DNA of 64,000 bases from Gaiellales bacterium (lineage in GTDB: Bacteria > Actinomycetota > Thermoleophilia > Gaiellales > Gaiellaceae), in assembly GCA_038215565.1 (NCBI GenBank), contig JBBQQU010000004.1:121478-185477 (forward strand), in the 5' to 3' direction. Positions 8,466 to 50,180 of the stretch are shown in pieces. Positions within the stretch are counted from its first letter, which is position 1, and every line of letters begins with the position of its first letter. Below the pieces are notes generated by a model, which did not search any database, was not told the origin of the DNA, and saw only the letters and a list, made by a program, of their open reading frames with translations. The position numbers and the translations under genes are program-made.

Positions 8466-8539
8466 GGTGGCGGACGGGACTCGAACCCGCGACCACCGGG
8501 ACCACAACCCGGGGCTCTACCAACTGAGCTACCGCCACC
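8466..8539 (-). tRNA. tRNA-His(GTG) with encoded G-1; no encoded CCA
   Basis: The 5' end GGTGGCGG includes the extra G-1 opposite C73. Anticodon stem CCGGG/CCCGG with loop TTGTGGT. T-arm GCGGGTTCGAGTCCCGT. Confidence 0.9.
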
Positions 8540-8648
8540 GTGCACCGGCAATCGTATCGGCGGTCGGCAGCGAGCGTCTCGACGGCCGAGCGGGCAGGGA
8601 GACGTCGTCAGCGGCCCGAACGACGAAGGGTGGTCGCGAGGCCAGTCG

Positions 8649-9842: not shown

Positions 9843-9995
9843 GCCCGCTTCGGTGAACCGGCGCCCGGAGCCCACAGCGTCGAGCGCTTGCGGTACGGCA
9901 AGAGAATCCGATCTCACGGCCCGCTCTTCGGACATCGCCTGCTCTTCCATGATCCAGCACCGACACTACCGCGCTGACAGAGCGACACGACAGGA

Positions 9996-10067
9996 TGCGC
10001 CCGGGAGGATTCGAACCCCCGACCAACGGCTTAGAAGGCCGCCGCTCTTCCCCTGAGCTACGGGCGC
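9996..10067 (-). tRNA. tRNA-Arg(TCT); no encoded CCA
   Basis: Acceptor GCGCCCG/CGGGCGC. Anticodon stem GCGGC/GCCGT with loop CTTCTAA. T-arm GGGGGTTCGAATCCTCC. Confidence 0.88.
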
Positions 10068-10094
10068 GCCCGTCAAGCGTATCGGGGTGCGCCG

Positions 10095-10637
10095 TTAGTT
10101 GCGGGCGCCGAAATCGGTGGTGATGATCGTCACCGCGGAGCCGCCGTAGGTGCCTGGGGCAAACGCGAAGTGCACGGCAGAGACGCCGATCTCACGCCAG
10201 CGCGGCGAGAGGATGTTCGCGCGATGCTCAGGCGAGTGCATCCACAGGTCGAGAGCTCGCGCAGAGTCGACGTCGGGTGACGACCAAAGCAGATTCTCGC
10301 CGACCGACCACGTGTGGAAGCCGGACTGCGAATACCAGCGAAGGATGCGCTTCCAGAACGCGGTTCCGTCATGCGAGGAGTGCTCGAAGTACCCGTCGGC
10401 GCCCATCTCGGTCGTGTGCTGCTTCGACGCGACGGTGAGACGGGAACTCAAGGTCAGCGGGACGAGGTGGTGCTCGACGCGAATCGTGTTCAGCTGCTGC
10501 AGGACGCCGGACTCGAGGGAACTCAAGGCGACCGCGTGTCGGCTCGGCGACGACGTCGCGGTCGCCGGCACGACGAGCATGGCAAGAGCAGCGACGAGAA
10601 CGAGGAACGGACGGGCATGGACCGGCGGAACTCTCAC
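10095..10637 (-). CDS. CAP (SCP/PR-1-like, YkwD-type) domain secreted protein
   Basis: 180 aa with a GTG start and a signal peptide. Motifs GENLLW, HSPEHRANILSPRWREIGV and C-terminal TTDFG. Confidence 0.8.
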   Translation of the reverse strand: MRVPPVHARPFLVLVAALAMLVVPATATSSPSRHAVALSSLESGVLQQLNTIRVEHHLVPLTLSSRLTVASKQHTTEMGADGYFEHSSHDGTAFWKRILRWYSQSGFHTWSVGENLLWSSPDVDSARALDLWMHSPEHRANILSPRWREIGVSAVHFAFAPGTYGGSAVTIITTDFGARN

Positions 10638-10692
10638 CCTCCAGAGATCGGCGCGACGCGGCTCTACCGCAATCCACCGAAAGGGGTACCTC

Positions 10693-11772
10693 TCAGGCTG
10701 GTGGCGGCTCCGCGACCGGCTCGATGGCGGGCCTGCGGTGGGCAGCCAGCTGATCGCGGACGATCACCTGGATCGCACCCGCGACGGGGATCGCCGCAAG
10801 GGCGCCGAGGATGCCCGCGAGCTCTGCGCCGACGAGCACGGAGATGAGGACGGCGAGTGGCGAGAGCTGAACCGTGCGGCCGTAGATCACCGGTTGGAGG
10901 AAGTGGTTCTCGAGCTGCTGGTACACGATGAAGAAGACCAGCACGATGATCCCCGCCGGCACGTTGTGCAGGAAAGCGACGGCGGTGACGATCGCGCCTG
11001 CGACGGTCGCGCCGGCGAGCGGAATCAGATCGAGGACCGCGACGAGCAGACCAAGCGCGACGGCATACGGGACGCCGAGCGCGAGCAGCACGATCGTGAT
11101 CGACGTACCCGCGATCAGGCTGATCAGGATGTTCCCGGTGACGTAGCCGCCGACCGTCTTGTAGATGTCGCGGGCGACGCCTCGCCAGCGTGGCCGTGAC
11201 TCTTCCGGGAACAGCGAGTAACAGCGCTCCATCCAGTCACCGCCCTCGAGGAGCATGAAGAACGTGAGGAAGATGATCGTCACGGTCGCGGCGATGATCG
11301 TGATCACGCTCTTCGTGACCGAGAGGGCCGCGCCTGAGAGCCCGAGGACCTTTGCCGTGCCGCCTTTCTTCACCTGCGCTTGCACCTTCTCGACGACGTG
11401 ATAGCGCCGCTCGAGGAAGCCGAGGCGCCCGCGGCCCTGCGTCAGATCGTGGACATAGGTGGGCGATGTCTGAACGAAGCCGTTCACCTCGTCGACGAGC
11501 TTCGGCACGAACGTCGCGCCGACTCCGCTGATCACGACGATCAGGAGGAGGTACGTCATCGCGATCGCGGCGCCGCGTCCGAGGTGTCCCCGCCGCTCCA
11601 TGACCCCCACCAGCGGGTCGAGCGCGAGGGAGAGAAACAGCGCGATCACGACCCACGCGAGCACGTGGCGCGCGATCCAGATGATCGCGAGGGTGATCGC
11701 AACGCTGATCGCAATCAGCAAGACCCGCACGATGGTGCGGGCGCGCAGGTCGACAACGCGCACGGGCGTCAC
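10693..11772 (-). CDS. AI-2E family transporter (PerM/UPF0118)
   Basis: 359 aa, polytopic. Motifs YVTGNILISLIAG and LDLIPLAGATVGA-like (VLDLIPLAGATVAGAI). Confidence 0.85.
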   Translation of the reverse strand: MTPVRVVDLRARTIVRVLLIAISVAITLAIIWIARHVLAWVVIALFLSLALDPLVGVMERRGHLGRGAAIAMTYLLLIVVISGVGATFVPKLVDEVNGFVQTSPTYVHDLTQGRGRLGFLERRYHVVEKVQAQVKKGGTAKVLGLSGAALSVTKSVITIIAATVTIIFLTFFMLLEGGDWMERCYSLFPEESRPRWRGVARDIYKTVGGYVTGNILISLIAGTSITIVLLALGVPYAVALGLLVAVLDLIPLAGATVAGAIVTAVAFLHNVPAGIIVLVFFIVYQQLENHFLQPVIYGRTVQLSPLAVLISVLVGAELAGILGALAAIPVAGAIQVIVRDQLAAHRRPAIEPVAEPPPA

Positions 11773-11819
11773 CGGTTGAGCATCACCAGAGGGTCGGACG
11801 TTGTTAGCCTTGGACCTCT

Positions 11820-12116
11820 ATGAGCCTCCTCACCTCACCGATCGTCGAGCACGCGTCGCTGCCGCAGGGAGGCAGCGTGACGGTGTGGGTCGGGATAGTC
11901 GACGATCCGTACTTCGACGACAAGAGCGGGTTGACGACGGTCGACCTCCAGCTGCACGAGGGCCACGGCGTCGTCGCGAGCATGTCGACCGTCCTCGAGC
12001 CGCATCAGGAGACCGAGGCGCGCGCACTCGCCCGCGAGGTGAAGGCGGCGATCGAGGCCGGCGAGATCGGCCTGCACGCGAGCGAGCTCGAGCCGTTCGC
12101 CGACAAGCTCCGCTAA
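11820..12116 (+). CDS. hypothetical protein (98 aa)
   Basis: ATG start and very high GC3 throughout. No family recognised. Confidence 0.6.
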   Translation: MSLLTSPIVEHASLPQGGSVTVWVGIVDDPYFDDKSGLTTVDLQLHEGHGVVASMSTVLEPHQETEARALAREVKAAIEAGEIGLHASELEPFADKLR

Positions 12117-12156
12117 CTCGGCAAGACCCGCGCGACGCGCGTGCACCGTGAGAAGA

Positions 12157-12227
<71 letters not shown>

Positions 12228-12229
12228 AT

Positions 12230-13009
12230 TTGAGCTCTAGTTTAGCTGCGGTGCTGCTCGCCGACGCTCACTCGCCCTACGTCTGGCAGGCCGATGTCGA
12301 CACGACTGTCGTCATCCCCGTGCTTGCGCTCCTCTACCTGTTCGCCGTCGGCCGGCTCGGTGCGCCGCGGTGGCGGATCGCCTGTTATGCCGGGTCGCTC
12401 GGCCTGCTTGCGGTGGCGTTCTGGACGCCGCTCCACCACCTCGGTCTGCACTACCTGCTGACCGCGCACCTGCTTCAGAACGTGATCCTCGCCGAATGGG
12501 CGCCGCTCCTTGCGGTGCTCGGCATCTCAGGGCCGATGGCCGACGTGCTCGCCCGGTCGCGTCCCTGGCGACTCCTTACGCACCCTGCGGTCGCGCTTCC
12601 GCTCTGGCTCGCGAGCTATTTCGCGTGGCACGCGCCTCCGCTCTTCGACGCGGCTCTGCGCCACCAGAGCTGGCTTGTGCATCTCGAGCACGCGTGTTAC
12701 TTCGGCACAGGAATCCTCGTCTGGTGGCCACTCGTGCAGGACGCGCCGAGACGTCTCGCATCAGGCGTGCGCGCTGCCTACGCGTTCGCCGCGTTCGTGC
12801 TTGCATCGCCGCTCGGCCTGCTGCTCGCGCTGCTGCCGCGCGCCGCGTACCCGTTCTATGTTGCCGCGCGACCGCGCGTGTGGGGGCTCAGCCCGCTCAC
12901 CGACCAGCAGATCGCGGGCGTGACGATGGCGAGCGAGCAGGCACTCGTCCTGTTCGTCGTCTTCGCCTACTGGTTCAGGCGGTTCCTCGGCGAGGAGGGC
13001 GCTATTTGA
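12230..13009 (+). CDS. cytochrome c oxidase assembly factor CtaG-like (caa3_CtaG family) membrane protein
   Basis: Polytopic. Motifs HLLQNVILAEWAPLL, AYFAWHAPPLFD-like and MASEQALV. The ORF-track start at 12182 lies inside tRNA-Gly. The first usable in-frame starts are TTG 12230 or GTG 12251. Confidence 0.7.
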   Translation: MSSSLAAVLLADAHSPYVWQADVDTTVVIPVLALLYLFAVGRLGAPRWRIACYAGSLGLLAVAFWTPLHHLGLHYLLTAHLLQNVILAEWAPLLAVLGISGPMADVLARSRPWRLLTHPAVALPLWLASYFAWHAPPLFDAALRHQSWLVHLEHACYFGTGILVWWPLVQDAPRRLASGVRAAYAFAAFVLASPLGLLLALLPRAAYPFYVAARPRVWGLSPLTDQQIAGVTMASEQALVLFVVFAYWFRRFLGEEGAI

Positions 13010-13385
13010 GGCAGCCGGTGACCGTGCTGATATCCGCGTCCGACGGATGCTCGTGCCAGAGCATCACGGCGTTCCGGTCCTGACGCAGCACGTCGTCGAT
13101 ACCGACGTTGCGTGCGTGGAAGCTCCGGTAGGCCTGGTCGATATTGTCGGCGTCCGCGGCGGTCGCTCCAAATGCGATCGTCACGAAGTTCGTCGCCAGA
13201 TGCGCGCGCAGTGCACCCCCCGTCGCCGTCGTGGCGACAAAGTCCAGGGAGCCGCCGAGCGCGACGTGCTTGGAGGTGAAGCACGCCTGCGTCTTCTGAA
13301 CCGTGTAGAGACCGGCGCCGCCCGAGCCGCCGCAGCCGGTAAGCAGAACGGCGAGCGCGATACCGCTGAGAGCGATGTGTTTCAC
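13002..13385 (-). CDS. hypothetical lipoprotein (127 aa)
   Basis: GTG start. MKHIALSGIALAVLLTGCGG carries the lipobox LTGC. Confidence 0.6.
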   Translation of the reverse strand: MKHIALSGIALAVLLTGCGGSGGAGLYTVQKTQACFTSKHVALGGSLDFVATTATGGALRAHLATNFVTIAFGATAADADNIDQAYRSFHARNVGIDDVLRQDRNAVMLWHEHPSDADISTVTGCLK

Positions 13386-13456
13386 GGCGGGTCAGTCTAG
13401 GCGCAAGGTCGGCTCTCTAGAGCCGGAACGGCGCGGGTCGCTACGCTTGCGCGCTC

Positions 13457-14668
13457 GTGATCGCCGCAGACCAGAGACTCGAGACGTACGCGCGACTTGC
13501 CGTTCAGGTGGGTCTCAACCTGCAACCGGGGCAGATCCTTGGGATCAACGCGCTCGTCGAGCATGCGCCGCTCGCCCGCGCGATCGCCCGCCAGGCCTAC
13601 GAAAGCGGCGCGCGCTACGTCGACGTGCTCTACAGCGACCAGCACGTCCGGCGCGCCCACATCGCCGCCGCCGCGGACGACCAACTTGGCTTTTCGCCCC
13701 CGTGGCTCGTCGAGCGCCTGCGCAACCTGGGCGAGATCGGCGGCGCGCTCGTCGCAATCACCGGCAACCCCGAGCCCGAGCTCTATGCGGATCTCGACGG
13801 CGAGCGCGTCGGCAAGGCGCGCATGCGCGAGGTCGCAGAGGAGTCGTTGAAGCTCACCGACGGTCTCTGCAACTGGACGATCGTCGCCTACCCGAACGCG
13901 GGTTGGGCACAGACGGTGTTCGGCGAGCCGGATGTCGAGCGGCTCTGGGATGCCGTCGGTGCCGCCGTTCGCCTCGACGAGGCCGATCCGGTCGCCGCTT
14001 GGCGCGACCACATCGCACGTCTCCAGCAGCGCGCCGCGGCACTGAACGAGCGCCGCTTCGACCACCTCCGCTACCGCGGCCCCGGCACCGACCTCTCGAT
14101 CGGGCTTCATCCCGACTCGGAATGGCAGGCAGCTCTCGACGAGTCGCGCGGGATCAAGCACGTGGCGAACATGCCCACCGAAGAGGTGTTCACGACACCC
14201 GACGCGCGCCGGGTGGACGGCACCGTCCGCTCGACGCTGCCGCTGCAGATCCAGGGCAACATCGTGCGCGGCCTCGAGGTCCGCTTCACGGACGGGCGTG
14301 TCGTCGAGATCCGCGCCGAATCGGGCGAAGAGGTCATGCGCACGCATGCGGCCACCGACGATGGGGCGTCGCGCCTCGGCGAGGTCGCTCTGGTCGACGG
14401 GCATTCACGCGTCGGTAAGACCGGGCTCGTCTTCTACGACACCCTCTTCGACGAGAACGCGTCGTCGCACATCGCGCTCGGTGCGTCGATCGTGCAGGCG
14501 GTTCCCGGCGCGAGCGAGCAAACAGCCGAGGAGCGCCACGCACGCGGCGTGAACCACTCGTCGATCCACACCGACTTCATGATCGGCTCGAACGAGCTCG
14601 AGATCGACGGCGTCACCACGGACGGCGAAGCCGTCCCGATCATCCGCAACGGCGACTGGCTGCTCTAA
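13457..14668 (+). CDS. aminopeptidase, M29 (AmpS/PepS) family
   Basis: 403 aa. N-terminus LETYARLAVQVGLNLQPGQ and C-terminal HIALG...HTDFMIG are characteristic of M29. Confidence 0.85.
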   Translation: MIAADQRLETYARLAVQVGLNLQPGQILGINALVEHAPLARAIARQAYESGARYVDVLYSDQHVRRAHIAAAADDQLGFSPPWLVERLRNLGEIGGALVAITGNPEPELYADLDGERVGKARMREVAEESLKLTDGLCNWTIVAYPNAGWAQTVFGEPDVERLWDAVGAAVRLDEADPVAAWRDHIARLQQRAAALNERRFDHLRYRGPGTDLSIGLHPDSEWQAALDESRGIKHVANMPTEEVFTTPDARRVDGTVRSTLPLQIQGNIVRGLEVRFTDGRVVEIRAESGEEVMRTHAATDDGASRLGEVALVDGHSRVGKTGLVFYDTLFDENASSHIALGASIVQAVPGASEQTAEERHARGVNHSSIHTDFMIGSNELEIDGVTTDGEAVPIIRNGDWLL

Positions 14669-14671
14669 CAG

Positions 14672-14745
14672 TCGGGACGGTCGGATTCGAACCGACGGCT
14701 TCCGCCTCCCAAAGGCGGCGCTCTGCCAGGCTGAGCTACGTCCCG
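14672..14745 (-). tRNA. tRNA-Pro(TGG); no encoded CCA
   Basis: Acceptor CGGGACG/CGTCCCG. Anticodon stem CCGCC/GGCGG with loop TTTGGGA. T-arm GTCGGTTCGAATCCGAC. Confidence 0.9.
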
Positions 14746-16742: not shown

Positions 16743-19700
16743 TCACACGTCATCCTCTGCGAGTGGGAGGACGAAGGCGAACCGCGCCCCCTTGCCTTCC
16801 TCCGAATCGACCCAGATCCGCCCTCCCATTTCGTGCACAAGCCCCTGCGCGATGAAGAGGCCGAGTCCCGTGCCGCGGCCCTGTGCGTCACCCGCCTTGT
16901 AGAACTTCGAGAAGATCCGCTCGCGCTCGGCCGGCGGAACCCCCGACCCTTCGTCGACAACGGCGACCTCGACGACATCGTCGAGCCGTCGAGCGCTGAC
17001 GACCACCGTACTGCCCGCCGGCGAGAATTTCACTGCGTTCGCGACGAGCTGATTCAGCACCTGCTGAAGCTTTTCAGGATCGGCCTGAGCGGCGAGTGAG
17101 CCCTCGTCGCCGACGTCCGCAACCAGCCGATGGTCGTCCGACCCGTCCGCGGCGGCGAGCGCTCGCTCGACCACGCGGCCGACATCGGTCGCTTCGAGTG
17201 AGACCGTCAGATCACCGGTGTCGAGCTGCGCGACGCTCAGCAGCGCATCGACGATCGACGTGAGGCGTTCGGACTCGCGCGCGATGAACTGGAGGAACGT
17301 CCTCCGTTCCGGCTCGCCGAAAGTGACGTCCTCGCGCAGCAGCGTCTGCGCGAAGCCGTAGATCGACGTGAGGGGCGTGCGGAGCTCGAGCGACACCGTC
17401 GACACGAAGTCGGACTTCATCTGCTCGACAACATGTTCCGATGAGATGTCGCGGAATGCGAAGATGCGGCCCGCCGTCGCGCCGGTCGGATCGCGCATCA
17501 CGGCCTCCGACAGCGACAGCCAGATCTCGGCACCGGCACGCGGGATCGCAATCGAGCGGTTCGTCCCGCCTCCTTCCGACTCGAGGTCACGCTGCAACAC
17601 CTGCGCTGTCGTCCGCCCGATCGCCTCGGCGGCCGGCACGCCGGTGATCTCCTCGGCCGCCCGGTTCCAGAGCACGACGTGACCGTCGCGGTCGACGGCG
17701 ACGATGCCGTCGGCGACGTTCGCGAGAATCGCGACACTTTGCCCGCGTTCCACGGCGACACGCTGGTACAGCTCGGCATTCGACAAGGCCACCGCTGCGC
17801 TCGCCGCGAGTGCGACGAGCGCGCCGACCTCCTCGTCACGCCACTCGCGCGGCTCGCGCGAGTAGACCGACAGCACGCCATAGATGCCGCCCTCACGCGC
17901 GGCGAGCGGCACGCCGAGGTACGCGCGGTTCCCTGCCGCCAGCAACGGGTCCCACTGGGCGAGGCCCTCGTCCGCGGTCGTGTCCTCGTACGCGCGTGGC
18001 GCTCGCGACTGCACGACATCACCGGCAAGCCAGCCGGTCGACGGAGAGCGCGCCGCGAGTGCGTCCTCGGCGCCCTGACCGGTTGCGGCGGTCACGACGA
18101 GCTCGTCACCGTCGAGCGCAGCGAGACTCGCGGCGTCGGCCGCGAGCAGCTCGACGGCGGCGTCGATGACGGCCTGGAGGACGGCGTCTGGATCGAGCTC
18201 GGTCGCAAGGAGCCTGCCCGTGCGCGCGAGCTGCTGGGAGAGCGCGCGACCGGCTCGCTCTGCCTCGTACAGGCGGCTGCGGTCGAGCGCGCCCCGCGCC
18301 GCTCCCGCCACCCGTTGCGCGAGCTCCAGATCGTCCCGCTCGAACGCCCGCGGGTCGCGAAAGAGGACGAGCACGACCCCTGAGCCTTCGCCGGGCACCG
18401 GAATGGCGAGGAGCGAGGCGAAGAGCCCGGATCGCCACTCGGCGCCAAAGCGCTCGTCGCTCGAAAGCGACGGTGCGACGAGCATCTGCCCGTCGCCCGC
18501 GGCCTCGGCCAGCGCCTCGGGCACATCGAACGCGCGCACCGATTCAGGCAGATCGTGGCCGCCGACGAACTGCAGCGCCCCGCCTACTCGAACGAGCAGG
18601 GCGGCAACGTCACCGCCGAGCGCCTCGGCGGCGGCCTGCGCCGCCGCGTCGTAGGTCTCCGCGAGCGACAGTGGCTCGCCGAGCAACGTCGCGATGCGGT
18701 AGAAGCCGCGCTGCACGCGCGCCTGGCGTGTCGTGTCTGCGAAGCTCTCGGCGTTGCGGAGCGCGAGCGAGGCGAGCGACGCGAACGCCTCGAGCATCTC
18801 GATGTCGGCGGCCGAGAACTCGCGGGTGCTGTCCCGCGCGCCGACGCCAAGCACGCCGAGCGTCTCACCGGCCCACACCATCGGCGCAACGAGCGCACGT
18901 GTGAACTCGGCGTACGCGGGATTCGGGATCGGATCCACGACCGCCGCTTCGTCATCCGAGCCGACCGGCCGCGCCTCGCGCAACGCCGCTCCGGCAAGTC
19001 CATGCGACGCCTCGAACTCGAATCCCACGAAGTCGTGCGCGAAGCCGTGCACGGCGGCGCAGCGAAGAATCCCGCGCTCCCGATCGAGCAGGTAACAGTC
19101 GGCGGCGTCCGCGCCGAGCAGCGTCGTCACCTGCTCGACGAGCAGCTCGAGGACGCTCTCGAGGTCGAGCTCGCTCGTGACGACCTGCGCCGCCTGGAGG
19201 AGAGCCGCCTGCTGCTCGAGTCTTTGGCGATTCTCGGTCAGGAGACGCGCTGTCCGAAGTGACGCACCGACCTCGTCTGCGACGGTGTTGACGAGGAACG
19301 TCTCGCCCGCGTCGAGCGGTGTCACGCGCTCGGCGATCAGAATGCCGATTTGCTCGCCATGCGCCACGATCGCCGTTCCGTAGCCGGTCGCGTCACTGAG
19401 CACGATCTCCGTCCGGTCGAGGCGAAGAACCCGCGCGAGCTCTACACATGCGACATCGATCACACTCTCTGGATCGAGCTCCGAGCGAATGCGACGGGTG
19501 ATTGCAGAGACGGTCTGCTCACGGCTGAGGGCATCCGAGAGGGCCGACGAGGAGCGAAGCCGTTCCAACGCGAGCGCGGCCTCGGCAGCCAGCGCGCGCA
19601 GAAGCGTCAGCTCCTCGGGCAGGAACGCCCGCTTGACGTCGGTCGATACAACGGCGAGCACGCCGATCACCCGATCCTCAGCGATCATCGGAATCCAGGC

Positions 19701-28820: not shown

Positions 28821-29195
28821 CTCATCTCATCGGGGGCGGCGTTCGAGAATCGCGTCGGCTATTCACGCGCGGTTCGCGTCGGCGATCGCGTGTGGGTCTC
28901 CGGGACGGCACCGATCATGCCCGAGGACGCTGACCCTCCTGTCGGCGCGTACGCGCAGGCTCGAATCTGCCTCCAGATCATCGAGGCCGCACTCGTCGAA
29001 GCCGGCTCGTCGCTGGATCATGTCGTCCGCACCCGCATCTTCGTCACCGACGCGGCGCTCATCGACGAGGTCGGCCGTGCGCACGTCGAAGCTTTCGCAA
29101 CGGCGCGGCCCGCGACGACCGGTCTCGTCGTTGGGCTACTCGACCCGCGGTGGCTTGTTGAGATCGAGGCAGAAGCGGTGATACTCCCATCGTGA
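28809..29195 (+). CDS. RidA/YjgF family protein
   Basis: 128 aa with a GTG start. YSRAVRVGDRVWVSGT...VRTRIFVTD...EIEAEA is the typical YjgF fold signature. Confidence 0.8.
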   Translation: MDRQLISSGAAFENRVGYSRAVRVGDRVWVSGTAPIMPEDADPPVGAYAQARICLQIIEAALVEAGSSLDHVVRTRIFVTDAALIDEVGRAHVEAFATARPATTGLVVGLLDPRWLVEIEAEAVILPS

Positions 29196-30427
29196 AGCAG
29201 ATCTTCCCACCGTCGATCACCGGCAAGGGCGCAGCGGGGCCGAGTGGCTCCGAGGCAAGCGTGCTCGAGCATGCATTCGGCAAGAGCGACCCGTTCACGC
29301 TCGGCGTCGAAGAGGAGTACATGCTGCTCGACCCGGAGACCTGGGATCTCGTGCAGCACATCGACTCGGTGCTGGCGGCGGTCGAGCACGGCGAGCACGA
29401 GGAGCGCATCCATGCGGAACTGATGCAGTCGGTGCTCGAGGTCACCACACCTGTTTGCCGCAACGCGGGCGACGTGATGCACGCGCTTGCGCAGTTGCGC
29501 GGCTACGTGGCCGAGATCGCCCGGTCCGAAGGCTGCCGGTTCGGCTCGGCGGGGACGCACCCGTTCAGTCTCTTCGAGCGCCAACGGATCACCGCGCGCG
29601 ACCGCTATCGGCAACTCGTCGATCAGCTCCAGTACATCGCCCGGCGCGAGTTGATCTTCGGCATGCATGTGCACGTTGCGATCGACGATCCGGAGAAAGC
29701 GATCCAGGTGATGAACGGGCTGCTCGTCCATCTACCGCAGATGCTCGCGCTCTCGTCATCGTCTCCGTTTTGGCGCGGCGAGCCGACCGGCCTCTCCTCG
29801 AGCAGGCAGATGGTGTTCGCCGCGTTCCCGCGCTCGGGGCCGCCGCCGCGATTCAAGGATTACGCCGACTTCGCCGACGTCGTCGGCCAACTCGAGCGCA
29901 CCGGCTGTATCGCCGACTACACGCACATCTGGTGGGACATCCGTCCGCATCCGCGGCTCGGGACGATCGAGATGCGTGTATGCGACGCCGTCACGCGACT
30001 CGAAGACGTCGTCGCGATCACCGCCTTCTTCCAGGCGATCGTGAAGATGTACTGCGAGTACTACGAGGCCGGCAAGCAGATCCCCACCTGGCACCGGATG
30101 TTGACGACCGAGAACAAGTGGCTCGCGGCGCGCTACGGGTTGGAGGCGCCGATCATGGATCTCGCGACAGGGCGGCGGAACCGTGTCTCGGTCTCGCAGC
30201 TGATCCGCCGGACGCTCCGCGACGTCGAGCCGCACGCACGCGAGCTCGGATCGGAACGCGAGCTCGAGGGTGTCCGCGAGATCCTCGCGCGCGGCAACGG
30301 CGCCGACCGTCAGCTGCGCGTCTGGAACGCGAATCGGGACATCGTCGAGGTCGTGCGCGAGATCTCGCTCGCAACCGAAGAAGGCGCGGTGAAGGGCGGC
30401 GTCGATAAGGTCATCGCGGCGGACTAG
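29192..30427 (+). CDS. carboxylate-amine ligase, YbdK/GCS2 family
   Basis: 411 aa. The GTGA overlap couples it to the upstream gene. Motifs FTLGVEEEYMLLD and GTHPF. The start could also be the GTG at 29261. Confidence 0.85.
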   Translation: MKQIFPPSITGKGAAGPSGSEASVLEHAFGKSDPFTLGVEEEYMLLDPETWDLVQHIDSVLAAVEHGEHEERIHAELMQSVLEVTTPVCRNAGDVMHALAQLRGYVAEIARSEGCRFGSAGTHPFSLFERQRITARDRYRQLVDQLQYIARRELIFGMHVHVAIDDPEKAIQVMNGLLVHLPQMLALSSSSPFWRGEPTGLSSSRQMVFAAFPRSGPPPRFKDYADFADVVGQLERTGCIADYTHIWWDIRPHPRLGTIEMRVCDAVTRLEDVVAITAFFQAIVKMYCEYYEAGKQIPTWHRMLTTENKWLAARYGLEAPIMDLATGRRNRVSVSQLIRRTLRDVEPHARELGSERELEGVREILARGNGADRQLRVWNANRDIVEVVREISLATEEGAVKGGVDKVIAAD

Positions 30428-30431
30428 ATAA

Positions 30432-31484
30432 TCAGCCGAGCTTCCAGAGCTTTGCTCCGTCGGGCGAATACCCGAGAGCGAGTGCACGCACTGCGGTCCG
30501 CGACGTGATCTTCCGCGCGCCGAGATCGAGGATCGCGACCGTCTCACCGTCGGCGAGCGCGATTCGGTTGCCGTCCGGCGCGAGCGCCGAGCTCGTCCCC
30601 TGACCGAGAAACCAACCGACGAGGCCGATCCGGAACGCGGTCTTCACGGTGCGCGCCGCGACGTCGATCGCGACAACCCTGCCGTACCGCGGGCTCACCG
30701 CCCAGAGCGTCTTGCCGTCGGCGGAGAGTTGCAGCGTCCAGGTCGTCGCGGCGCCATAGTCGCCCGTCCCGGGGAGGTCGATGCAGCGCGCCGTGCTCGA
30801 TTTCAAGTCGAGCTCGTGGATCATCGCCCCGCCGTTCGAGCCGATGAAAACGGTGAAGAGGAATTGGCCGTTCGCAGATGCGAGGCGTGAGAATGGCTGG
30901 CCCCAGATCGTGCCGGACTCATGCGGGTCTTTCAGCGGCTGTGCCTCGAGCACGCCGGATGCAAGATGCGCGAGCCTGACCTGATAGCCGCCCGTCACGA
31001 GATAGTGGATGAGGAAGAGGTTGTCGCCGCGGAGGGCGTCGAAGTCCCACTGCTTCCCGTCGACGTGAACCGTCTGCCGGCCGGCCGGCGACACCACGAT
31101 GAACGTTGCACCGCCGTTGTCAACCTGCTGAAGCACAGCGCGTGTCCCGTCCTGGGACGCGCCGTCCAATCTGTACCCCGCCGGGACCGCGACGCTTTGC
31201 ACCTTCGTGCCGAGCGTGAGGTCGTACCACTCCACCACCTGACCCTCGAGATGTACCAGGTAGTTGCGCGCGTTCACACCCGCGGGCAGCGCGAACTTCG
31301 CCTTACCGGTCGTCAGGTCGACGACGGTGACAGGCCGGTCCGCCGCTGTCCGGAACCCCATCAGCGTTCCGTGGGCGAGCGTGAACTGGCTGGGCGCGCA
31401 GTTGAGCGGCGAGCAGGCGGCGGCCCGGCCCGCTGCGGGCAGCAGGAGGGCGGCGGCGGCGAGGACGAGCGCGAGTCTCTTCAT
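30432..31484 (-). CDS. secreted beta-propeller-like hypothetical protein
   Basis: Start re-set to MKRLALVLAAAALLLPAAGRAAA (signal peptide). Repeated strand-rich blocks and SxDG motifs (LSADGKTLW, APDGNRIA, YSPDGAKLW) suggest WD40/TolB-like blades. Divergent from the ECF sigma gene. Confidence 0.6.
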   Translation of the reverse strand: MKRLALVLAAAALLLPAAGRAAACSPLNCAPSQFTLAHGTLMGFRTAADRPVTVVDLTTGKAKFALPAGVNARNYLVHLEGQVVEWYDLTLGTKVQSVAVPAGYRLDGASQDGTRAVLQQVDNGGATFIVVSPAGRQTVHVDGKQWDFDALRGDNLFLIHYLVTGGYQVRLAHLASGVLEAQPLKDPHESGTIWGQPFSRLASANGQFLFTVFIGSNGGAMIHELDLKSSTARCIDLPGTGDYGAATTWTLQLSADGKTLWAVSPRYGRVVAIDVAARTVKTAFRIGLVGWFLGQGTSSALAPDGNRIALADGETVAILDLGARKITSRTAVRALALGYSPDGAKLWKLG

Positions 31485-31565
31485 GCCTGGACTACGCGAG
31501 CGGGACCCGGAGAGGTCCCGGGCGCGTATGGACCTCATGCGCCTTCTTCGTCGTACAGTCAAAGG

Positions 31566-32063
31566 GTGTCAGAGCGCGCGTGGATCCGCGGAGCCCAGCG
31601 CGGGTCGGTCGCCGACCTCGAGCGCCTGTTTCGCGAGCACTGGCCGCGGGCCTATCGCGCAGCCCACCTCGTCACGGGTGACGCTGCTGCCGCCGAGGAC
31701 ATCGCGCAAGAGGCGTTCCTCGCCGCCATGCGACATCTCGACCGCTTCGACCGCCGCAAGCCGTTCGCACCGTGGCTGCATCGGATCGTCGTCAACCGCG
31801 CGATCGACTGGACGCGCGCGCGGAAGCTTCGCGCCGAGGTCGAGCTCGGCGACTCGGTCGCAGGACAGCCCGCAGCCGACCAAGACGGCTCCACGCTCAG
31901 CCGGATCGGCGAGCTCGCGCCTGAGCACCGCGCAGTCGTCGTCCTCCGCTACGTGCTCGAGTACACGCCCGGCGAGATCGCGGAGCTGCTCGACCTGCCG
32001 CGCGGAACCGTCAACTCACGCCTTCGCCGCGGCCTCGACCGGATGAGAGAGGACGCCGAATGA
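31566..32063 (+). CDS. ECF-type RNA polymerase sigma factor (sigma-70 family)
   Basis: GTG start at 31566. Region 2 is EDIAQEAFLAAMRHLDRFDRRKPFAPWLHRIVVNRAID. Region 4 is VVLRYVLEYTPGEIAELLDLPRGTVNSRLRRG. It is the tail of the spurious ORF 30921-32063. Confidence 0.88.
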   Translation: MSERAWIRGAQRGSVADLERLFREHWPRAYRAAHLVTGDAAAAEDIAQEAFLAAMRHLDRFDRRKPFAPWLHRIVVNRAIDWTRARKLRAEVELGDSVAGQPAADQDGSTLSRIGELAPEHRAVVVLRYVLEYTPGEIAELLDLPRGTVNSRLRRGLDRMREDAE

Positions 32064-33175
32064 GGGCGGCCGAGGAGCGCGCGTGGGAGGTCGTGAGACG
32101 TGCCTACGAGGAGCGGACGCCCGAGGTGCACGCGCGGCGGTCACGCTCGCGAATCGTCGTTGCGGTCGCAGTCGCGGTCGTCGGCGCGGTCGTCGCCGCG
32201 GTGCTTTCTCCGCCCGGGCGCGCTGTCTTCCATCGCTTCCGCGAAGCCGTCGGGATTCAGCGGGCCGCGCCGGCGCTCTTCTCGCTGCCGGCCAAGGGAC
32301 GGCTGCTCGTCGTCTCGCAGCGGCGCGGCGGCGTATGGATCGTCCACGACAACGGCTTGAAGCGCCGCCTTGGCTCCTTCGACGACGCCGAGTGGTCGCC
32401 GCACGGCCGCTTTCTCGTGGCGACGAGGCGGAATGAGCTCATCGCGCTCGACGAGAGCGGCTACGTCCACTGGTCCCTGACGCGACGGGGTGTGCGTGCG
32501 CCACGGTGGGAGGGCACGACGACCGACACACGGATCGCGTATCTCTCGGCGAGCGGTCTGCGCGTCGTCGCCGGCGACGGGACCGGCGATCGTCTGCTCG
32601 ATCGCAACGCGACGAGCGTGCCGCCTGCGTGGAATCCCGCGCGGCTTCACACACTCGCATACGTCGCCCGAGGCACCGTCGTCCTGCAGGCACTCGACAA
32701 GGGCACGCTCGACTGGCGTACGCCGATCGATCTGCACCCGTCCGATCTCGAGTGGTCTTCAGACGGAAAGCTGCTCGCCGTCGTGTCGCCGGGGCGCATC
32801 GTGATCCTCGATGCAGCGGGCTCGGTTCGGCGCACCGTGTCGATGCTCGGGGCGCAACTCATCGAAGCGTCGTTCGCGCCAGGCTCGCATAAGCTCGCGA
32901 TCGTCGAAAGGCGCGCGGCCCGCAGTGAGGTGCGCGTCGTCGACGTCGACCATCCGGGCCAGGCGCGGCTCCTCTTCGCAGGTCCCGGGGTCTTCGGCGA
33001 TCTCGCCTGGTCACCGAATGCGAAATGGCTCCTCGTCGCATGGCCGACCGCTGACCAGTGGCTGTTCCTCCGCGGCAGCAACGTGCATGCCGTCGCGAAC
33101 ATCAAGGCGCAGTTCCCGCGCGCCGACGGCAAAGGTGCGACGCTGCACCTCGCGGGCCGCTGGTGCTGCCGTTAG
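32060..33175 (+). CDS. membrane-anchored beta-propeller protein, candidate anti-sigma/sensor partner
   Basis: ATGA overlap with the sigma gene. Short cytoplasmic N-terminus, then one TM segment (IVVAVAVAVVGAVVAAVL), then propeller-like repeats (WSPHGRFL, WSSDGKLLAV, WSPNAKWLL). No zinc-finger anti-sigma motif is present. Confidence 0.65.
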   Translation: MRAAEERAWEVVRRAYEERTPEVHARRSRSRIVVAVAVAVVGAVVAAVLSPPGRAVFHRFREAVGIQRAAPALFSLPAKGRLLVVSQRRGGVWIVHDNGLKRRLGSFDDAEWSPHGRFLVATRRNELIALDESGYVHWSLTRRGVRAPRWEGTTTDTRIAYLSASGLRVVAGDGTGDRLLDRNATSVPPAWNPARLHTLAYVARGTVVLQALDKGTLDWRTPIDLHPSDLEWSSDGKLLAVVSPGRIVILDAAGSVRRTVSMLGAQLIEASFAPGSHKLAIVERRAARSEVRVVDVDHPGQARLLFAGPGVFGDLAWSPNAKWLLVAWPTADQWLFLRGSNVHAVANIKAQFPRADGKGATLHLAGRWCCR

Positions 33176-33184
33176 GCTCGCGGC

Positions 33185-33664
33185 ATGCTGTCGGTGGGTG
33201 ACCGCGTCCCGGACGTAACGATCTTCCTCGGCCCGAACGAGCCGATGACGATGCTGGAGTTGCTCGAGGACGGGCCGAAGCTCCTCGTCTTCTATCTCTT
33301 CGACTGGTCGTCCACCTGAACGAATGAGATGGAGCTCCTGCGTGACAGGAGAGCGGACTTCAAGGCGGCAGGCGTGCCGCCGATCGGCATCTCACGTGAC
33401 TCGCCCTGGACTCACATCGCCTGGACTCAGGCGCTTGACCTCAACTTCGGCCTGCTCTCCGACTGGAACGGCGAGGCCATCCACGCCTTCGGGATCACCC
33501 AGGAATTTCGCGGCCTGAAGGACGTCGCAGAACGAAGTGCGTTCCTGATCGACGCGGACGGGATCGTGCACGGAGCCTGGCACTACGGCACGAGCGAGCT
33601 GCCCGACATGGACGAGCTGCTCGAGGCGTGCCGGATTTTGAGTTCGTCTGCCCGGTCTGCGTAA
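33185..33664 (+). CDS. peroxiredoxin-like (AhpC/TSA-Bcp family) protein with in-frame TGA (codon 45, 33317-33319) at the peroxidatic Cys position; candidate selenoprotein
   Basis: Read through the TGA, the translation is MLSVGDRVPDVTIFLGPNEPMTMLELLEDGPKLLVFYLFDWSST-U-TNEMELLRDRRADFKAAGVPPIGISRDSPWTHIAWT...ERSAFLIDADGIVH. D-W-S-S-T-U-T-N-E aligns position by position with the Prx motif D-F-T-F-V-C-P-T-E. The ORF track sees only the 111-aa C-terminal piece (33329-33664). Confidence 0.6.
33335..33351 (+). other. candidate bacterial SECIS hairpin
   Basis: Stem CTCCTG (33335-40) pairs with CAGGAG (33346-51). The loop CGUGA contains GU. The loop G/U lie about 26-27 nt from the U of the UGA, within the usual bacterial SECIS window. 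Confidence 0.4.
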
Positions 33665-33673
33665 AGTTGGCAG

Positions 33674-34261
33674 ATGGACTCAGCAACCACCGCGGCGCCG
33701 GCCGAGGAACGCACCTCCGGCGCACTCACAATCGGTCTGCTCGCGATCGTCCTCGTCGTCGCGGCAATCTTCGCCTTCTCCTCATCCGCACTCGTGCCGA
33801 ATCATTGGTACGCCGTCTTCAAGTTCGTGCACGTCACCTTCGCCGTCATCTGGATCGGCGGTGGTGCCCTTCTGACGATCCTCGCCCTCGTCGCACAGCG
33901 GAAGTCCGACCCGATGGAGGTTGTGCTCGTCGCACGCCAGGCGGCCCTCGTCGGCGAAAAACTCTTCGCGCCGGCAGGGCTCATCGTCTTCTTGATGGGC
34001 GTCGCGATGATGATCAACTTCAACTGGGGCTGGGGCACGTTCTGGATCGACGCCGGCCTCGTGGGTTATGCGATCACCTTCGTCACGGGGATCGCCGTCC
34101 TCGCGCCGCTGGCGAAGAAGATCGAAGCCTCGGCGGAGGGACACGGCCCGACCGACCCGAGGACGATGGCGCTGATCAACCGCATCCTGCTGGTCGCGCG
34201 GGTCGACGTCGCGATGCTCTTCCTCGTGATCGCCGACATGGTCACGAAGCCGTTCAGCTAA
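33674..34261 (+). CDS. DUF2269-like integral membrane protein
   Basis: 195 aa with four hydrophobic segments. FKFVHVTFAVIWIGG is a typical N-terminal helix. It begins 9 nt after the peroxiredoxin-like gene. Confidence 0.65.
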   Translation: MDSATTAAPAEERTSGALTIGLLAIVLVVAAIFAFSSSALVPNHWYAVFKFVHVTFAVIWIGGGALLTILALVAQRKSDPMEVVLVARQAALVGEKLFAPAGLIVFLMGVAMMINFNWGWGTFWIDAGLVGYAITFVTGIAVLAPLAKKIEASAEGHGPTDPRTMALINRILLVARVDVAMLFLVIADMVTKPFS

Positions 34262-39801: not shown

Positions 39802-40626
39802 TCACGGGGTCATCGGCGCGCCGCCACCGTCCATCCCCGAACTCATCGAACCCGTCGGCTGCGTCAATCCGGGAACGCTGCCAGGCGCGGTCGCAACCCA
39901 GATGCCCGCCGCGACGAAGCCGACGGCGAAGACGCGCGTCAGACGCGCGCCGCCTGGGAGAACCTTCTGCGCGAAGATCAGCGAGGCGACAACCACCATC
40001 CAGAGCAGGCTCATGACGCCGAGGGCAAAGAGGACGATCATCAAGCCCCAGCAGCAGCCGACGCAGTAGCCGCCGTGCTCGACGCCCATCCTGACCGCAC
40101 CGATCCGGCCGTCACGCCAGCGGCCGAGCACGAAGTGGAGTGGGCTTCGGCAGTGGTTCAGGCAGACCGACTTGAGTGGCGTGAGCTCGTAGAGGCCGGC
40201 GAGGATGATCGCGCCCCCGGCGACGTACGGGCCGGCGCGATCCCACGCGAGGAACCCCGAGCCGAGGTGGATCACGAGGCGGTACAGGCCGTAGGCGACA
40301 AGCCCGTACGCGGCCCAGACGGCGAGGTAGCCGGCGGCGAACATCCACACCGGGACATAGCCGCGCTCACCGCGTGCGCGCTGGCTCGAGATCCGCCGGA
40401 AGAGCAGCACCATCGGCATCGCCGAGGGCAGCATCATCGCGGCCATCATCGTCACCCACACGCCCACGAACCAGCCGAACGCGCCGAGATCGGTTCCAGG
40501 GCCGCCGTCCATGCCGCGCATCCGCTGGACGGTCACGATCCAGGTCACGAGCGCGACCGCGACGACGACCGTGCCGACCAAGAACGGGTCGCGCCGAATC
40601 AGCCGGCCGCGTTCGAGTGTGCTCAT
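39802..40626 (-). CDS. DUF2182 family integral membrane protein (predicted metal-binding)
   Basis: Start re-set to MSTLERG, with GGGGGAG SD upstream. Met-rich helix WVTMMAAMMLPSAMPMVLLF. CxxC-type motif GGYCVGCCWGLM. Confidence 0.75.
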   Translation of the reverse strand: MSTLERGRLIRRDPFLVGTVVVAVALVTWIVTVQRMRGMDGGPGTDLGAFGWFVGVWVTMMAAMMLPSAMPMVLLFRRISSQRARGERGYVPVWMFAAGYLAVWAAYGLVAYGLYRLVIHLGSGFLAWDRAGPYVAGGAIILAGLYELTPLKSVCLNHCRSPLHFVLGRWRDGRIGAVRMGVEHGGYCVGCCWGLMIVLFALGVMSLLWMVVVASLIFAQKVLPGGARLTRVFAVGFVAAGIWVATAPGSVPGLTQPTGSMSSGMDGGGAPMTP

Positions 40627-40648
40627 CGATCTCCCCCGGCCCGGACCG

Positions 40649-41278
40649 TCAGTTCGACCAGTCGATCGGTGCGTAGTGCGCGTTCTTGCCCGAGTTATCC
40701 CACTGCATGCCGTGGTCCGAGTAGGTGCTCCCGGCATCGCCGACCGCCATCGCAACACCTGCCGGCGCGAACGGATGCGCGTTCGTGGCCCAGATCTCGC
40801 CGTCCGGGTTGATGCTCGGCACCGCCGACACGGCGAGCGACATCACGTCGTCCACGTGGATCGAGCGACGCTTGCCGTCGGCATGCCAGCGAATCGACGC
40901 GCTACGCGCGCCGAGAACCTCACCGATCAACGGAGCGAGATTTGCCATCACGCCGCCTGCGCCGCCCGTGAAGATCGCCTGCAAGCCCGCGCTCTGCTCC
41001 TCGGACGCCTGATCATCGAGATACAGCGCAACCTGCCAGTTCCCGTCGGCCATCGGACCTGGCGTACGCGCGATCAGGCCGACGCTCAGCCCGTCGAGCG
41101 ACACGTCACCGAAGTTCCCCTCGTCGACGTGGAAGCCGAACGCGACCTCGCACGCGCCCTGGGTCGGCACCGACGTCATGGGCTGAAGCGGCGAGAACAG
41201 GCACGGACAGACGATGTCGCAGTTGCAGTTCTCGAAGTACTCACCTTGGACGCGCCAACTCGTCTCGGTGGCAGCCAT
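40649..41278 (-). CDS. DUF1326 family protein
   Basis: Start set to the second ATG (41278), which has GGAGG 6 nt upstream. Cys cluster FENCNCDIVCPCLF. The usual genomic partner of DUF2182. Confidence 0.75.
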   Translation of the reverse strand: MAATETSWRVQGEYFENCNCDIVCPCLFSPLQPMTSVPTQGACEVAFGFHVDEGNFGDVSLDGLSVGLIARTPGPMADGNWQVALYLDDQASEEQSAGLQAIFTGGAGGVMANLAPLIGEVLGARSASIRWHADGKRRSIHVDDVMSLAVSAVPSINPDGEIWATNAHPFAPAGVAMAVGDAGSTYSDHGMQWDNSGKNAHYAPIDWSN

Positions 41279-41337
41279 CCCGACCTCCATTCGCGGTAGA
41301 CGTCGACCCCGAGGCTAGACCACGAGCGGCGCCAAAT

Positions 41338-48451: not shown

Positions 48452-48833
48452 GGATGTCGAGTCTATTCGGTCCGAGATCGCATTCCGGTTCTCGCGGTCG
48501 AGCGGGCCGGGTGGCCAGCACGCGAACAAGACCTCGACGCGGGCCGAGGCGATCTTCGACGTCGAGCAGTCACTCGGCCTCACCGAGGCCGAGCGCGGGC
48601 GCGTGCTCGCAAAGATCGGGCCGGTCGTGCGCGCGGTCGCGCAGGACGAGCGCTCGCAGCTTCGTAACCGCGAGCTCGCCGCCGAGCGGATTCTCGAACA
48701 GCTCCGCGAGGCGACGAAGGTCCGGCGCAAGCGCACGGCGACGAGGCCGACTCGCGCGGCAAAAGAGCGCCGGCTCGACGACAAGAAGCGGCGCGGCGAG
48801 ACGAAACGCCTGCGGCGCGACGTCGACGACTAG
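48450..48833 (+). CDS. arfB: alternative ribosome-rescue factor ArfB (peptidyl-tRNA hydrolase, RF-1 domain)
   Basis: 127 aa. GGQ motif SSGPGGQHANKT and a basic C-terminal tail KRRGETKRLRR. No other start codon lies in the 40 codons upstream. Confidence 0.88.
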   Translation: MDVESIRSEIAFRFSRSSGPGGQHANKTSTRAEAIFDVEQSLGLTEAERGRVLAKIGPVVRAVAQDERSQLRNRELAAERILEQLREATKVRRKRTATRPTRAAKERRLDDKKRRGETKRLRRDVDD

Positions 48834-50062
48834 CTGTGCCGCGCGGGGTCGGCGTCGAAGGTGTGCTTGCAGTGCGCGCCGCAGAAGTAGATCCGGCGTC
48901 CCTCGAGCTCGGAGGTCGGCCCGCCCGCATGCTTGTCGACGGTCATGCCGCACACGGGGTCTTTAACGCCCCGCCGGAGCGTCAGCCCGATCAGCGCGAC
49001 GAAGGCGACGGCGAAGAGGATGTCGAGTACCGATGTGTAGTTCCAGGTGACCGGCCGGTCTGCGATCGAGGCGAGCGAAGGGCGCTTCGTCGGCACAAGA
49101 CCCACCAATGAGAAGAGGCCGTCGACGACAAGCGCCGCGGTCACCATCGAGGCGAACATCACCGCGACGAGGAGTGCTGCGAACCGCCCCCCGTAGACCT
49201 TGCGGTAATAACTGATGATCGGCAGCACGATCAGATCGGCGAAGAGAAAGGCGATCACGCCCGAGAACGAGATGCCGCCGCTCCAGAGCACGGCCGCGAG
49301 CGGGACGTTGCCGATCGAGCAGACGAACGCAAGCGCCGCAACGATGGGGCCGACGAGAACGTTCTCGAGGAGGCGCACCCAGTGGGAGGAATCCGTCAGG
49401 AAGAGGCCGTTGAAGAACGTCTTCGGCAGCGTCGCGACGTAGCCCGCGATCAGGAACCCGATCCCGATCTCCTTCCAGAGCATCTGCCAGTCGCCGCGGA
49501 AGTTGTGCGCGACGTCGGACCACGCCTGCACCGAGGTCACCTTGCGTCGCAGTGGCAGCTCGGTTTGCGCGGTTGGATGCTGGTGCCCCGTGTCGGCCGT
49601 AGCGACCCGCGCCCTCAGCTCGCGTTCGCGCAGGGGCGAGACGAGCAACCGAAGCCCCGCCCACATGACCCCGATCAGAACGAGCCCGCCGACGAATTCC
49701 GCGAGCGTGAACCGCCAGCCGATGAAGAGCCACAGCACGATCCCGAGCTCGAAGACGAGGTTCGTCGAGGCGAACTGGAACGCCATCGCCGAGACGAGGC
49801 TCGCCCCCTTCTCGAAGAGCGACTTCGCGATCGCGACGGCTGCGTAGGAGCACGACGACGACGCGGCGCCAAGCCCGGTTGCGAGTGCGACCTCGCGCGG
49901 CCCCCGGCGGCCAAGGGCGCGCTCGAGGCGAGCACGCGGCACCCAAGCCTGGACAATCCCGGACAGGGCGAAGCCGAGGACGAGCGCCCACCACACCTCC
50001 CAGAGCATGCGGAGCGCGTTCGCGAGTCCCTCCCAGAGCCACATCGACCCCAGACTAGACAT
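48830..50062 (-). CDS. permease (ArsP_1/DUF318-like) fused to a C-terminal YHS/TRASH metal-binding domain
   Basis: Polytopic core with ATGLGAASSSCSYAAVAIAKSLFEKGAS. C-terminus VKDPVCGMTVDK...YFCGAHCKHTF is a YHS domain. The start is ATG 50062 or 50044; the ORF-track start at 50131 overlaps the small ORF listed at 50073-50180. Confidence 0.8.
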   Translation of the reverse strand: MSSLGSMWLWEGLANALRMLWEVWWALVLGFALSGIVQAWVPRARLERALGRRGPREVALATGLGAASSSCSYAAVAIAKSLFEKGASLVSAMAFQFASTNLVFELGIVLWLFIGWRFTLAEFVGGLVLIGVMWAGLRLLVSPLRERELRARVATADTGHQHPTAQTELPLRRKVTSVQAWSDVAHNFRGDWQMLWKEIGIGFLIAGYVATLPKTFFNGLFLTDSSHWVRLLENVLVGPIVAALAFVCSIGNVPLAAVLWSGGISFSGVIAFLFADLIVLPIISYYRKVYGGRFAALLVAVMFASMVTAALVVDGLFSLVGLVPTKRPSLASIADRPVTWNYTSVLDILFAVAFVALIGLTLRRGVKDPVCGMTVDKHAGGPTSELEGRRIYFCGAHCKHTFDADPARHS

Positions 50063-50072
50063 CAGGGGCGGT

Positions 50073-50180
50073 CTAGAGGTTGCGGCGAGCCCGGCTGTCG
50101 AACTGGCGCGAATCGGCGCCGTAGGCGGCACCGAGCGCGCACACCGCGATCACGGCGAGCAGGAAAAGGATGGCGATCAT
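50073..50180 (-). CDS. candidate small membrane protein (35 aa) upstream of the YHS-permease
   Basis: MIAILFLLAVIAVCALGAAYGADSRQFDSRARRNL has one TM helix and a basic tail. 31/35 codons end in G or C. Below the ORF-track length cut-off. No clear SD. Confidence 0.35.
   Translation of the reverse strand: MIAILFLLAVIAVCALGAAYGADSRQFDSRARRNL

Follow-up and report, generated by a model that had tools for sequence, protein, structure and literature searches.

Selenocysteine (Sec) in a peroxiredoxin has been shown experimentally for PrxU of Eubacterium acidaminophilum (Sohling et al. 2001). The family entered as 'Prx, PF00578, TxxU' is on the list of verified selenoproteins in a 2026 review, where the PxxxTxxU motif is called highly conserved, and in a 2016 survey Prx was the seventh most frequent bacterial selenoprotein family, found in 78 organisms. 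From the Sargasso Sea metagenome come 43 Sec-peroxiredoxin genes of the Bcp type (COG1225), belonging to marine plankton of unknown taxa. We have analyzed a stretch of 64,000 nucleotides from a Gaiellales bacterium (contig JBBQQU010000004.1 of assembly GCA_038215565.1), hereafter the window, in which a peroxiredoxin gene is interrupted by UGA at codon 45, the codon of its catalytic residue. A note made earlier from the sequence alone, which we call the original prediction, had put this gene forward as a candidate selenocysteine enzyme and had described Sec-for-Cys peroxiredoxins as known but rare. Known they are, but they are not rare, for the family has been recognized for a long time and is fairly common in bacteria.

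How does this locus compare with the systems already described? It shares with PrxU and the 'Prx TxxU' family the PF00578 domain, a probable Sec as the peroxidatic residue (position Cp) with a Thr or Ser three residues before it, and a putative Sec insertion sequence (SECIS) immediately downstream, within the coding region. It differs in that the gene is not a PrxU equivalog, has Ser at position -3 and Leu at -7 relative to Cp, and resides in a member of the Gaiellales, an order of soil Actinomycetota. The Sargasso Sea set, to which we liken it by description only, is also Bcp-type, with a TxxU motif and bacterial SECIS (bSECIS) elements that have a G in a small apical loop. We consider it very probable that the residue at UGA45 is Sec, in a full-length peroxiredoxin of 159 residues. 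The locus is a lineage-wide, mis-annotated addition to a known selenoprotein family; it is no new kind of system.

The gene occupies a frame of 160 codons, stop included, beginning with ATG at 33185 and ending with TAA at 33662-33664 on the forward strand. As the original prediction had stated, the TGA at 33317-33319 is the single stop within it. When the TGA was translated as Cys, the product matched the Pfam AhpC-TSA profile (PF00578) with E=3.5e-24 and 85.6 bits (cutoff 26), over profile positions 1-122 of 124. In a sequence search, 111 distinct peroxiredoxin sequences of the PDB matched the 159-residue product. The best was Bcp of Aeropyrum pernix (2cx3, E=3.2e-21), in which residues 5-155 align with product residues 2-149, followed by Sulfolobus Bcp-4 (3hjp, E=3e-17) and M. 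tuberculosis AhpE (1xxu/1xvw, E=2e-11). These matches indicate that the product shares the peroxiredoxin (thioredoxin-like) fold over its full length, and the gene appears to encode an intact Bcp/AhpE-like peroxiredoxin of the AhpC/TSA family. Scored against the PrxU equivalog model of NCBIfam (NF040737, 233 residues) the product reached 40.7 bits, where the cutoff is 270, and no NCBIfam model scored at or above its cutoff in a scan of the product.

In the alignment with 2cx3, WSST*TNE of the product lies opposite FSPVCTKE, placing the TGA on the peroxidatic Cys. The proposal that the stop falls on the Cp column is thus upheld by alignment to solved structures of the Bcp/AhpE type. The conserved Arg that had been noted downstream is also confirmed: Arg117 aligns with the catalytic Arg of 2cx3.

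We scanned species-representative genomes for orthologues and obtained 80 loci with 63-85% identity, all from Gaiellales, Gaiellaceae, Thermoleophilia or unclassified Actinomycetota metagenome-assembled genomes (MAGs). The Cp codon is TGA in 66, TGC in 13 and TGT in one. For brevity we call the TGA genes, including that of the window, Sec forms (67 in this set) and the other 14 Cys forms. A start codon (ATG or GTG) lies exactly 44 codons upstream of the Cp codon in every one of the 80 loci, and the frame stays open downstream for 100-157 codons, mostly 107-117, with one locus ended by a contig edge. The original prediction had suggested looking for orthologues with TGC or TGA in this column, and both occur; it had also named assorted stops and frameshifts in relatives as the mark of a decaying gene, and among the 80 orthologues we saw no further stop or frameshift.

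The Sec forms diverge down to 58% identity. Among them the ratio of nonsynonymous to synonymous substitution rates (dN/dS) is about 0.39 over the 43 codons that follow the start codon and precede the UGA, and about 0.23 over 60 codons after it. The GC content at third codon positions (GC3) upstream of the UGA is 0.93, in a genome of 67% GC. Given these ratios and this GC3, both halves of the gene are translated in one frame, and purifying selection acts on both sides of the UGA. The Cys forms comprise one clade of 10 and four singletons nested among the Sec forms, and the two forms occupy one and the same syntenic locus. This has the appearance of the usual repeated exchange of Sec and Cys among orthologues. 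TGA is the commonest ordinary stop among the high-GC3 open reading frames (ORFs) of the window, and terminates many orthologues of the peroxiredoxin gene itself; the genetic code is therefore standard. Two contigs of one MAG (L031 and L034; CAVRYT01, MFD06085.bin.2.155) both carry the Sec-peroxiredoxin locus, identical where compared, which is either a duplication or redundancy of the bin.

We also examined the residues surrounding Cp. At position -3, where the family has Thr or Ser, 154 of 165 distinct Sec forms have Ser and 11 have Thr; the window gene has Ser42. At position -7 the Pro of the PxxxTxxC motif is replaced by Leu38 in the window, and the 165 Sec forms have Leu in 161, Ile in two, and Val and Pro in one each. 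The Cys forms are mixed at this position, with 50 Pro and 37 Leu in the protein database, and 12 Pro and two Leu in the genome set. Since 37 of 87 Cys-form relatives have Leu, this residue is a trait of the subfamily and no argument against its membership of the peroxiredoxins. Leu at -7 is nearly fixed in the Sec forms, yet not specific to them; a strict covariation of Sec with Leu, apparent in the 80 genomes, was rejected on the larger set. At least 79 of 81 orthologues retain Arg117. No second Cys is conserved, and just 31 of the 81 share the Cys149 of the window. The gene thus resembles 2cx3, 3hjp and AhpE in length and in the alignment of Cp and Arg, and resembles AhpE in having no conserved resolving Cys. 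It differs in that those proteins have Cys at Cp together with the Pro of PxxxTxxC, whereas the window gene has UGA (probably Sec) and Leu.

The second element of the locus is a hairpin downstream of the UGA. The original prediction had proposed a SECIS here and had placed its stem correctly to the nucleotide, at 33335-33351 on the forward strand; its distance of about 26 nt from the UGA to the loop fits only the middle of the loop, the gap between UGA and loop being 21 nt. The combination CTCCTG/CGTGA/CAGGAG has no other match in the window. According to the published bSECIS model as quoted in PMC13188914, the element has a loop of 3-9 nt, a stem of 4-16 bp, a spacing of 16-37 nt from the UGA and a minimum free energy (MFE) of -7.5 kcal/mol or lower, with a G within the first two loop positions that is usually followed by G or U. 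The hairpin has a 5-nt loop, CGUGA, with G and U at loop positions 2 and 3, a stem of 6 bp and a spacing of 21 nt, all within the published limits. Its MFE is -8.7 kcal/mol (33333-33353), or -11.6 kcal/mol with a lower helix; the bare 17-nt stem-loop gives -7.4 kcal/mol.

The codons that form the hairpin are almost frozen. Codons 50-56 read GAG CTC CTG CGT GAC AGG AG- in all 67 Sec forms, save for single changes in the leading GAG of two genes, and codons 51-55 (CTC CTG CGT GAC AGG) exhibit no synonymous variation in 67 of 67. CGT and AGG are otherwise rare in these genes, as at Arg71, which is CGC in 56, CGG in six, CGT in two and AGG in one, and the codon entropy at the other Leu codons of the gene is 0.9-1.5 bits. 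The 14 Cys forms encode a nearly identical peptide using CGC, CGG or CGA and CTC, CTG, GTG or GTC, so that this stem cannot form. The stem-loop is thus under selection specifically in the UGA forms. Its fit to the bSECIS model, its invariance in the TGA forms and its lack of conservation in the Cys forms bear out the proposal of a SECIS.

Additional sequences were sought in metagenomes with the pattern F-D-W-S-x-T-UGA-AC alone, the hairpin being left out so as to avoid circularity. This gave 120 matches, comprising 19 unrelated sequences, in which the hairpin is absent, and about 100 additional Sec forms, some of them more divergent. Among 167 Sec sequences the three apical pairs never vary, and the loop reads CGUGA in 161 and CGGGA in six. 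Pair 20-34 is U-A in 156 and U-G in nine, pair 21-33 is C-G in 163, U-G in one and C-A in three, and the basal pair is C-G in 159. The stem changes in the divergent metagenomic forms mostly preserve pairing. Where lower pairs are lost (L145, L167, L175 and L193), folding gives a bulged A or new outer pairs, with a stem of 7-9 bp. The lower helix of 4 bp, beneath an internal loop, has a single compensatory change, the U-A of the window being C-G elsewhere, together with variation among G-U, A-U and G-C, and is less strongly supported than the upper stem.

Two other hairpins with a CGTGA loop are present in the window and the related-locus DNA, and neither has a TGA upstream. Some Cys-form loci (L027, L061 and others; positions 3141-3178) have different stable hairpins at this place, down to -18.9 kcal/mol and in some cases with G as the first loop nucleotide. 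They may be left over from an earlier SECIS, or may arise merely from the high GC content of the sequence.

We infer Sec at codon 45 because a UGA has long been kept in the column of a redox-active Cys, where TGC is one mutation away, and is tied to a hairpin of canonical SECIS type. This combination has no other established explanation in bacteria. What weighs against this interpretation? The support for Sec45 lies at the level of sequence and not of protein. The folding energy of the hairpin is not unusual for the GC-rich composition of the region (z=-1.36 against shuffled sequences), and the Cys-form orthologues also fold stably at the same position (-7.5 to -18.9 kcal/mol). For both reasons we rejected folding energy as evidence for a SECIS and do not count the stability of the hairpin, which exceeds chance in its conservation and not in its energy. 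The upper stem is almost devoid of true compensatory double changes, and in principle a constraint on sequence, not on structure, could account for some of its conservation. No SECIS or tRNA-Sec was identified by comparison with Rfam, either in the window at the gathering threshold or, at E<=10, in 33250-33450, a result that we treat as uninformative. In the literature searched we found no paper linking the Gaiellales or Thermoleophilia with the use of Sec.

The machinery for Sec insertion was also not observed in the DNA surveyed, the 64-kb window and about 1.1 Mb from related loci. A Pfam scan of the approximately 55 window ORFs revealed no SelA, SelB or SelD, and ARAGORN found no tRNA-Sec in the window or in about 200 related loci. 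A tblastn search of 1.14 Mb of window and related-locus DNA, with approximate E. coli SelD, SelA and SelB queries, found nothing. The window and these loci constitute one chromosomal neighbourhood, so the absence of sel genes and tRNA-Sec from them says little. In the divergent, non-syntenic loci the peroxiredoxin has as neighbours genes for a DNA methylase, a HEPN protein, a pyridine nucleotide-disulphide oxidoreductase, a cupin and a GCS2 ligase, and an ORF of about 680-750 amino acids, with no sel genes among them. Two metagenome contigs carrying the Sec-peroxiredoxin have tRNAs of unusual length called by ARAGORN, neither with a UCA anticodon: a tRNA-Ser(GGA) of 98 nt (L155:1061-1158) and a doubtful tRNA-Arg(GCG) of 91 nt (L197:764-854).

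Might UGA45 be decoded as something other than Sec? Cys could be inserted by a tRNA-Sec-like tRNA-Cys in a pathway of the SelB/SECIS type, or the hairpin could stimulate near-cognate readthrough with Trp or Cys. Some bacteria do possess tRNA-Sec-like tRNAs that are charged with Cys. The Sec machinery is missing from the one neighbourhood that we have surveyed, and the repeated interchange of Sec and Cys in the family means that Cys at position 45 is clearly functional. However, the hairpin departs in no respect from the canonical bSECIS model, and if Cys were the residue a TGC codon would suffice, without the cost of 23 invariant nucleotides. The UGA has been kept in at least 66 species although TGC and TGT are one nucleotide away, which argues that it provides something that Cys does not. 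We therefore regard such decoding as improbable. A shade less probable again is that the Gaiellales are without canonical SelA, SelB and tRNA-Sec and decode UGA and hairpin by other means, for example through a Cys-charged tRNA-Sec-like tRNA or SelB-independent readthrough. If this were true, the order-wide signature would be that of a different recoding system imitating Sec insertion.

Alternatively, UGA45 might terminate translation, giving a 44-residue peptide and a separate C-terminal fragment of about 110 residues from an internal start. Gene callers give exactly this fragment, as the original prediction had anticipated: the public protein collection holds only the 111-amino acid product of 33329-33664 (P0023), initiated at an ATG 9 nt after the TGA. 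Yet the fragment does not possess a conserved start codon, this ATG being replaced by a Leu codon (CTC or CTG) in 29 of 67 Sec forms. Such a fragment would lack both the catalytic residue and the initial beta-strands of the thioredoxin fold. The 44 N-terminal codons, moreover, are under purifying selection in frame with the remainder, and in each of the 66 genomes the stop coincides exactly with the Cp column. Termination is thus very unlikely.

A pseudogene created by a nonsense mutation at the catalytic codon is less credible still. In one genome a single in-frame stop does look like a fresh nonsense mutation, but 66 species-level genomes and about 100 metagenome contigs share this stop at this codon, the frames are otherwise intact, dN/dS on either side is far below 1, and the adjacent 23-nt element is invariant; this explanation is refuted. 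An error of sequencing or assembly, by which TGC or TGT came to be read as TGA, is the least credible explanation of all and is effectively refuted, for although the sole identical Logan contig (L001) begins just after the TGA, independent assemblies from many projects have TGA, always with the hairpin-specific codons that the Cys forms lack, and the window itself has the Sec-type codons CGT, AGG and AGA.

Returning to Sec as the residue at codon 45, how might the enzyme be made and function? The hairpin, 21 nt past UGA45, would act as a bSECIS element. SelB with Sec-tRNA(Sec) would bind the hairpin and deliver Sec to UGA45, thereby preventing termination. With Ser42 and Arg117 holding it in position, the Sec45 selenolate would then reduce peroxides and be converted to a selenenic acid, an activity that is predicted. 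Because no second Cys is conserved, we would place the enzyme in a 1-Sec class resembling 1-Cys AhpE, and it should therefore require an external reductant. It might be recycled by thioredoxin, glutaredoxin, a mycoredoxin-like protein or a low-molecular-weight thiol.

The orthologous 109-amino acid fragment MFZ1880273.1 is labelled 'redoxin domain-containing protein' at NCBI. Only this fragment is annotated because no NCBIfam model claims the gene, and for the same reason automatic pipelines will go on missing it. The gene is called as a truncated, catalytically dead protein across an abundant order of soil actinobacteria, in 66 or more of its species-level genomes. If Sec is indeed inserted, most Gaiellales use selenocysteine, of which we found no report in the literature searched, and this would bear on the selenium demand and oxidative-stress biology of a dominant, rarely cultured soil group. 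The understanding of selenoproteins is unchanged, and the value of the locus lies mainly in annotation and ecology. The approximately 165 Sec forms and their syntenic Cys orthologues, with repeated exchange at one locus and a frozen SECIS apex, also provide a comparison set with which to ask how a 1-Cys peroxiredoxin benefits from Sec in place of Cys, and what is recognized by the SelB of these bacteria.

Table 1. Features of the peroxiredoxin locus, in window coordinates
Feature	Position	Strand	Basis
Full-length coding sequence, predicted 159-residue 1-Sec peroxiredoxin (AhpC/TSA family, Bcp/AhpE-like), read through UGA45 to TAA	33185-33664	+	Frame, Pfam, PDB matches, orthologues
Leu38 codon, position -7, normally a conserved Pro in peroxiredoxins	33296-33298	+	Sec-form alignment
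Ser42 codon, position -3 of the PxxxT/SxxC motif, Ser replacing the usual Thr	33308-33310	+	Sec-form alignment
UGA codon 45, probable Sec, peroxidatic (Cp) position	33317-33319	+	Aligns with Cp of 2cx3, 3hjp and 2ywn
Extended putative SECIS, lower 4-bp helix (33325-33328 with 33359-33362) below an internal loop	33325-33362	+	RNAalifold consensus
Putative SECIS, upper stem-loop: 6-bp stem CUCCUG/CAGGAG, 5-nt apical loop CGUGA (33341-33345)	33335-33351	+	Conservation, bSECIS model
Arg117 codon, conserved active-site Arg	33533-33535	+	Aligned with conserved Arg of 2cx3
ECF-type sigma factor gene, ending at 32063, then gene of 371-amino acid protein (32060-33175)	31500-33175	+	Pfam, synteny
DUF2269 integral membrane protein gene	33674-34261	+	PF10027, E=4e-15; starts 9 nt past peroxiredoxin stop

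The genes around the peroxiredoxin are closely packed. Upstream is a gene for a sigma factor of the extracytoplasmic function (ECF) type (Sigma70_r2, E=6.6e-18; r4, E=6.7e-13, Pfam). It is overlapped by 4 nt by the gene of the 371-amino acid protein, which ends 9 nt before the peroxiredoxin ATG. The latter protein has faint beta-propeller matches, all under the Pfam cutoffs, and may be an anti-sigma factor. No terminator-like site was found on the forward strand between these three genes, which form a probable operon. The DUF2269 gene adjoins that of the peroxiredoxin in 44 of 80 loci, and the two are probably co-transcribed. The tight cluster of sigma factor, possible anti-sigma factor, peroxiredoxin and DUF2269 protein suggests stress-responsive expression; both co-transcription and control of this kind are plausible.

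The order of genes is GCS2 ligase, hypothetical gene, ECF sigma factor, 371-amino acid protein, peroxiredoxin, DUF2269 protein, FabI and S8 peptidase, and this synteny is kept in most loci. The conserved block, from the GCS2-type glutamate-cysteine ligase to DUF2269, spans 29192-34261 of the window (loci L002-L081). In 61 of 80 loci the GCS2 gene is no more than 3 kb from the peroxiredoxin, a hint of some connection with low-molecular-weight thiol metabolism. In a divergent Sec-form lineage DUF2269 is replaced by the conserved ORF of about 680-750 amino acids, which has no Pfam match and directly follows the peroxiredoxin (L074:3393-5447; approximately 3162-5400 in L056, L058, L065, L067, L069 and L080). 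No conserved in-frame TGA that might denote a second selenoprotein was found in the neighbouring genes. Apparent stops in the alignment of the ECF sigma factor were an artefact, the query having begun upstream of the true start codon.

The remainder of the window is ordinary chromosome, with clpX, clpP, tig, six tRNAs, ileS, ispH, rpsI, rplM, glmS, glmM, guaA and guaB. A TGA at 16743-16745 on the reverse strand, between a 1256-amino acid GAF/PAS histidine kinase and an in-frame receiver domain, was considered as a site of recoding and rejected; this is an ordinary gene pair, in which the receiver has its own ATG and GGAG ribosome-binding site. The six tRNA genes (Leu-TAG, Arg-TCG, His-GTG, Arg-TCT, Gly-TCC and Pro-TGG) are dispersed among protein genes over 7.5 kb of the reverse strand (7302-14745). 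Genes related to metals occur at 39802-41314 and 48830-50149, also on the reverse strand, and comprise a PpoB2 copper chaperone-like gene beside one for a DUF1326 protein, and an ArsP-type permease fused to a YHS domain.

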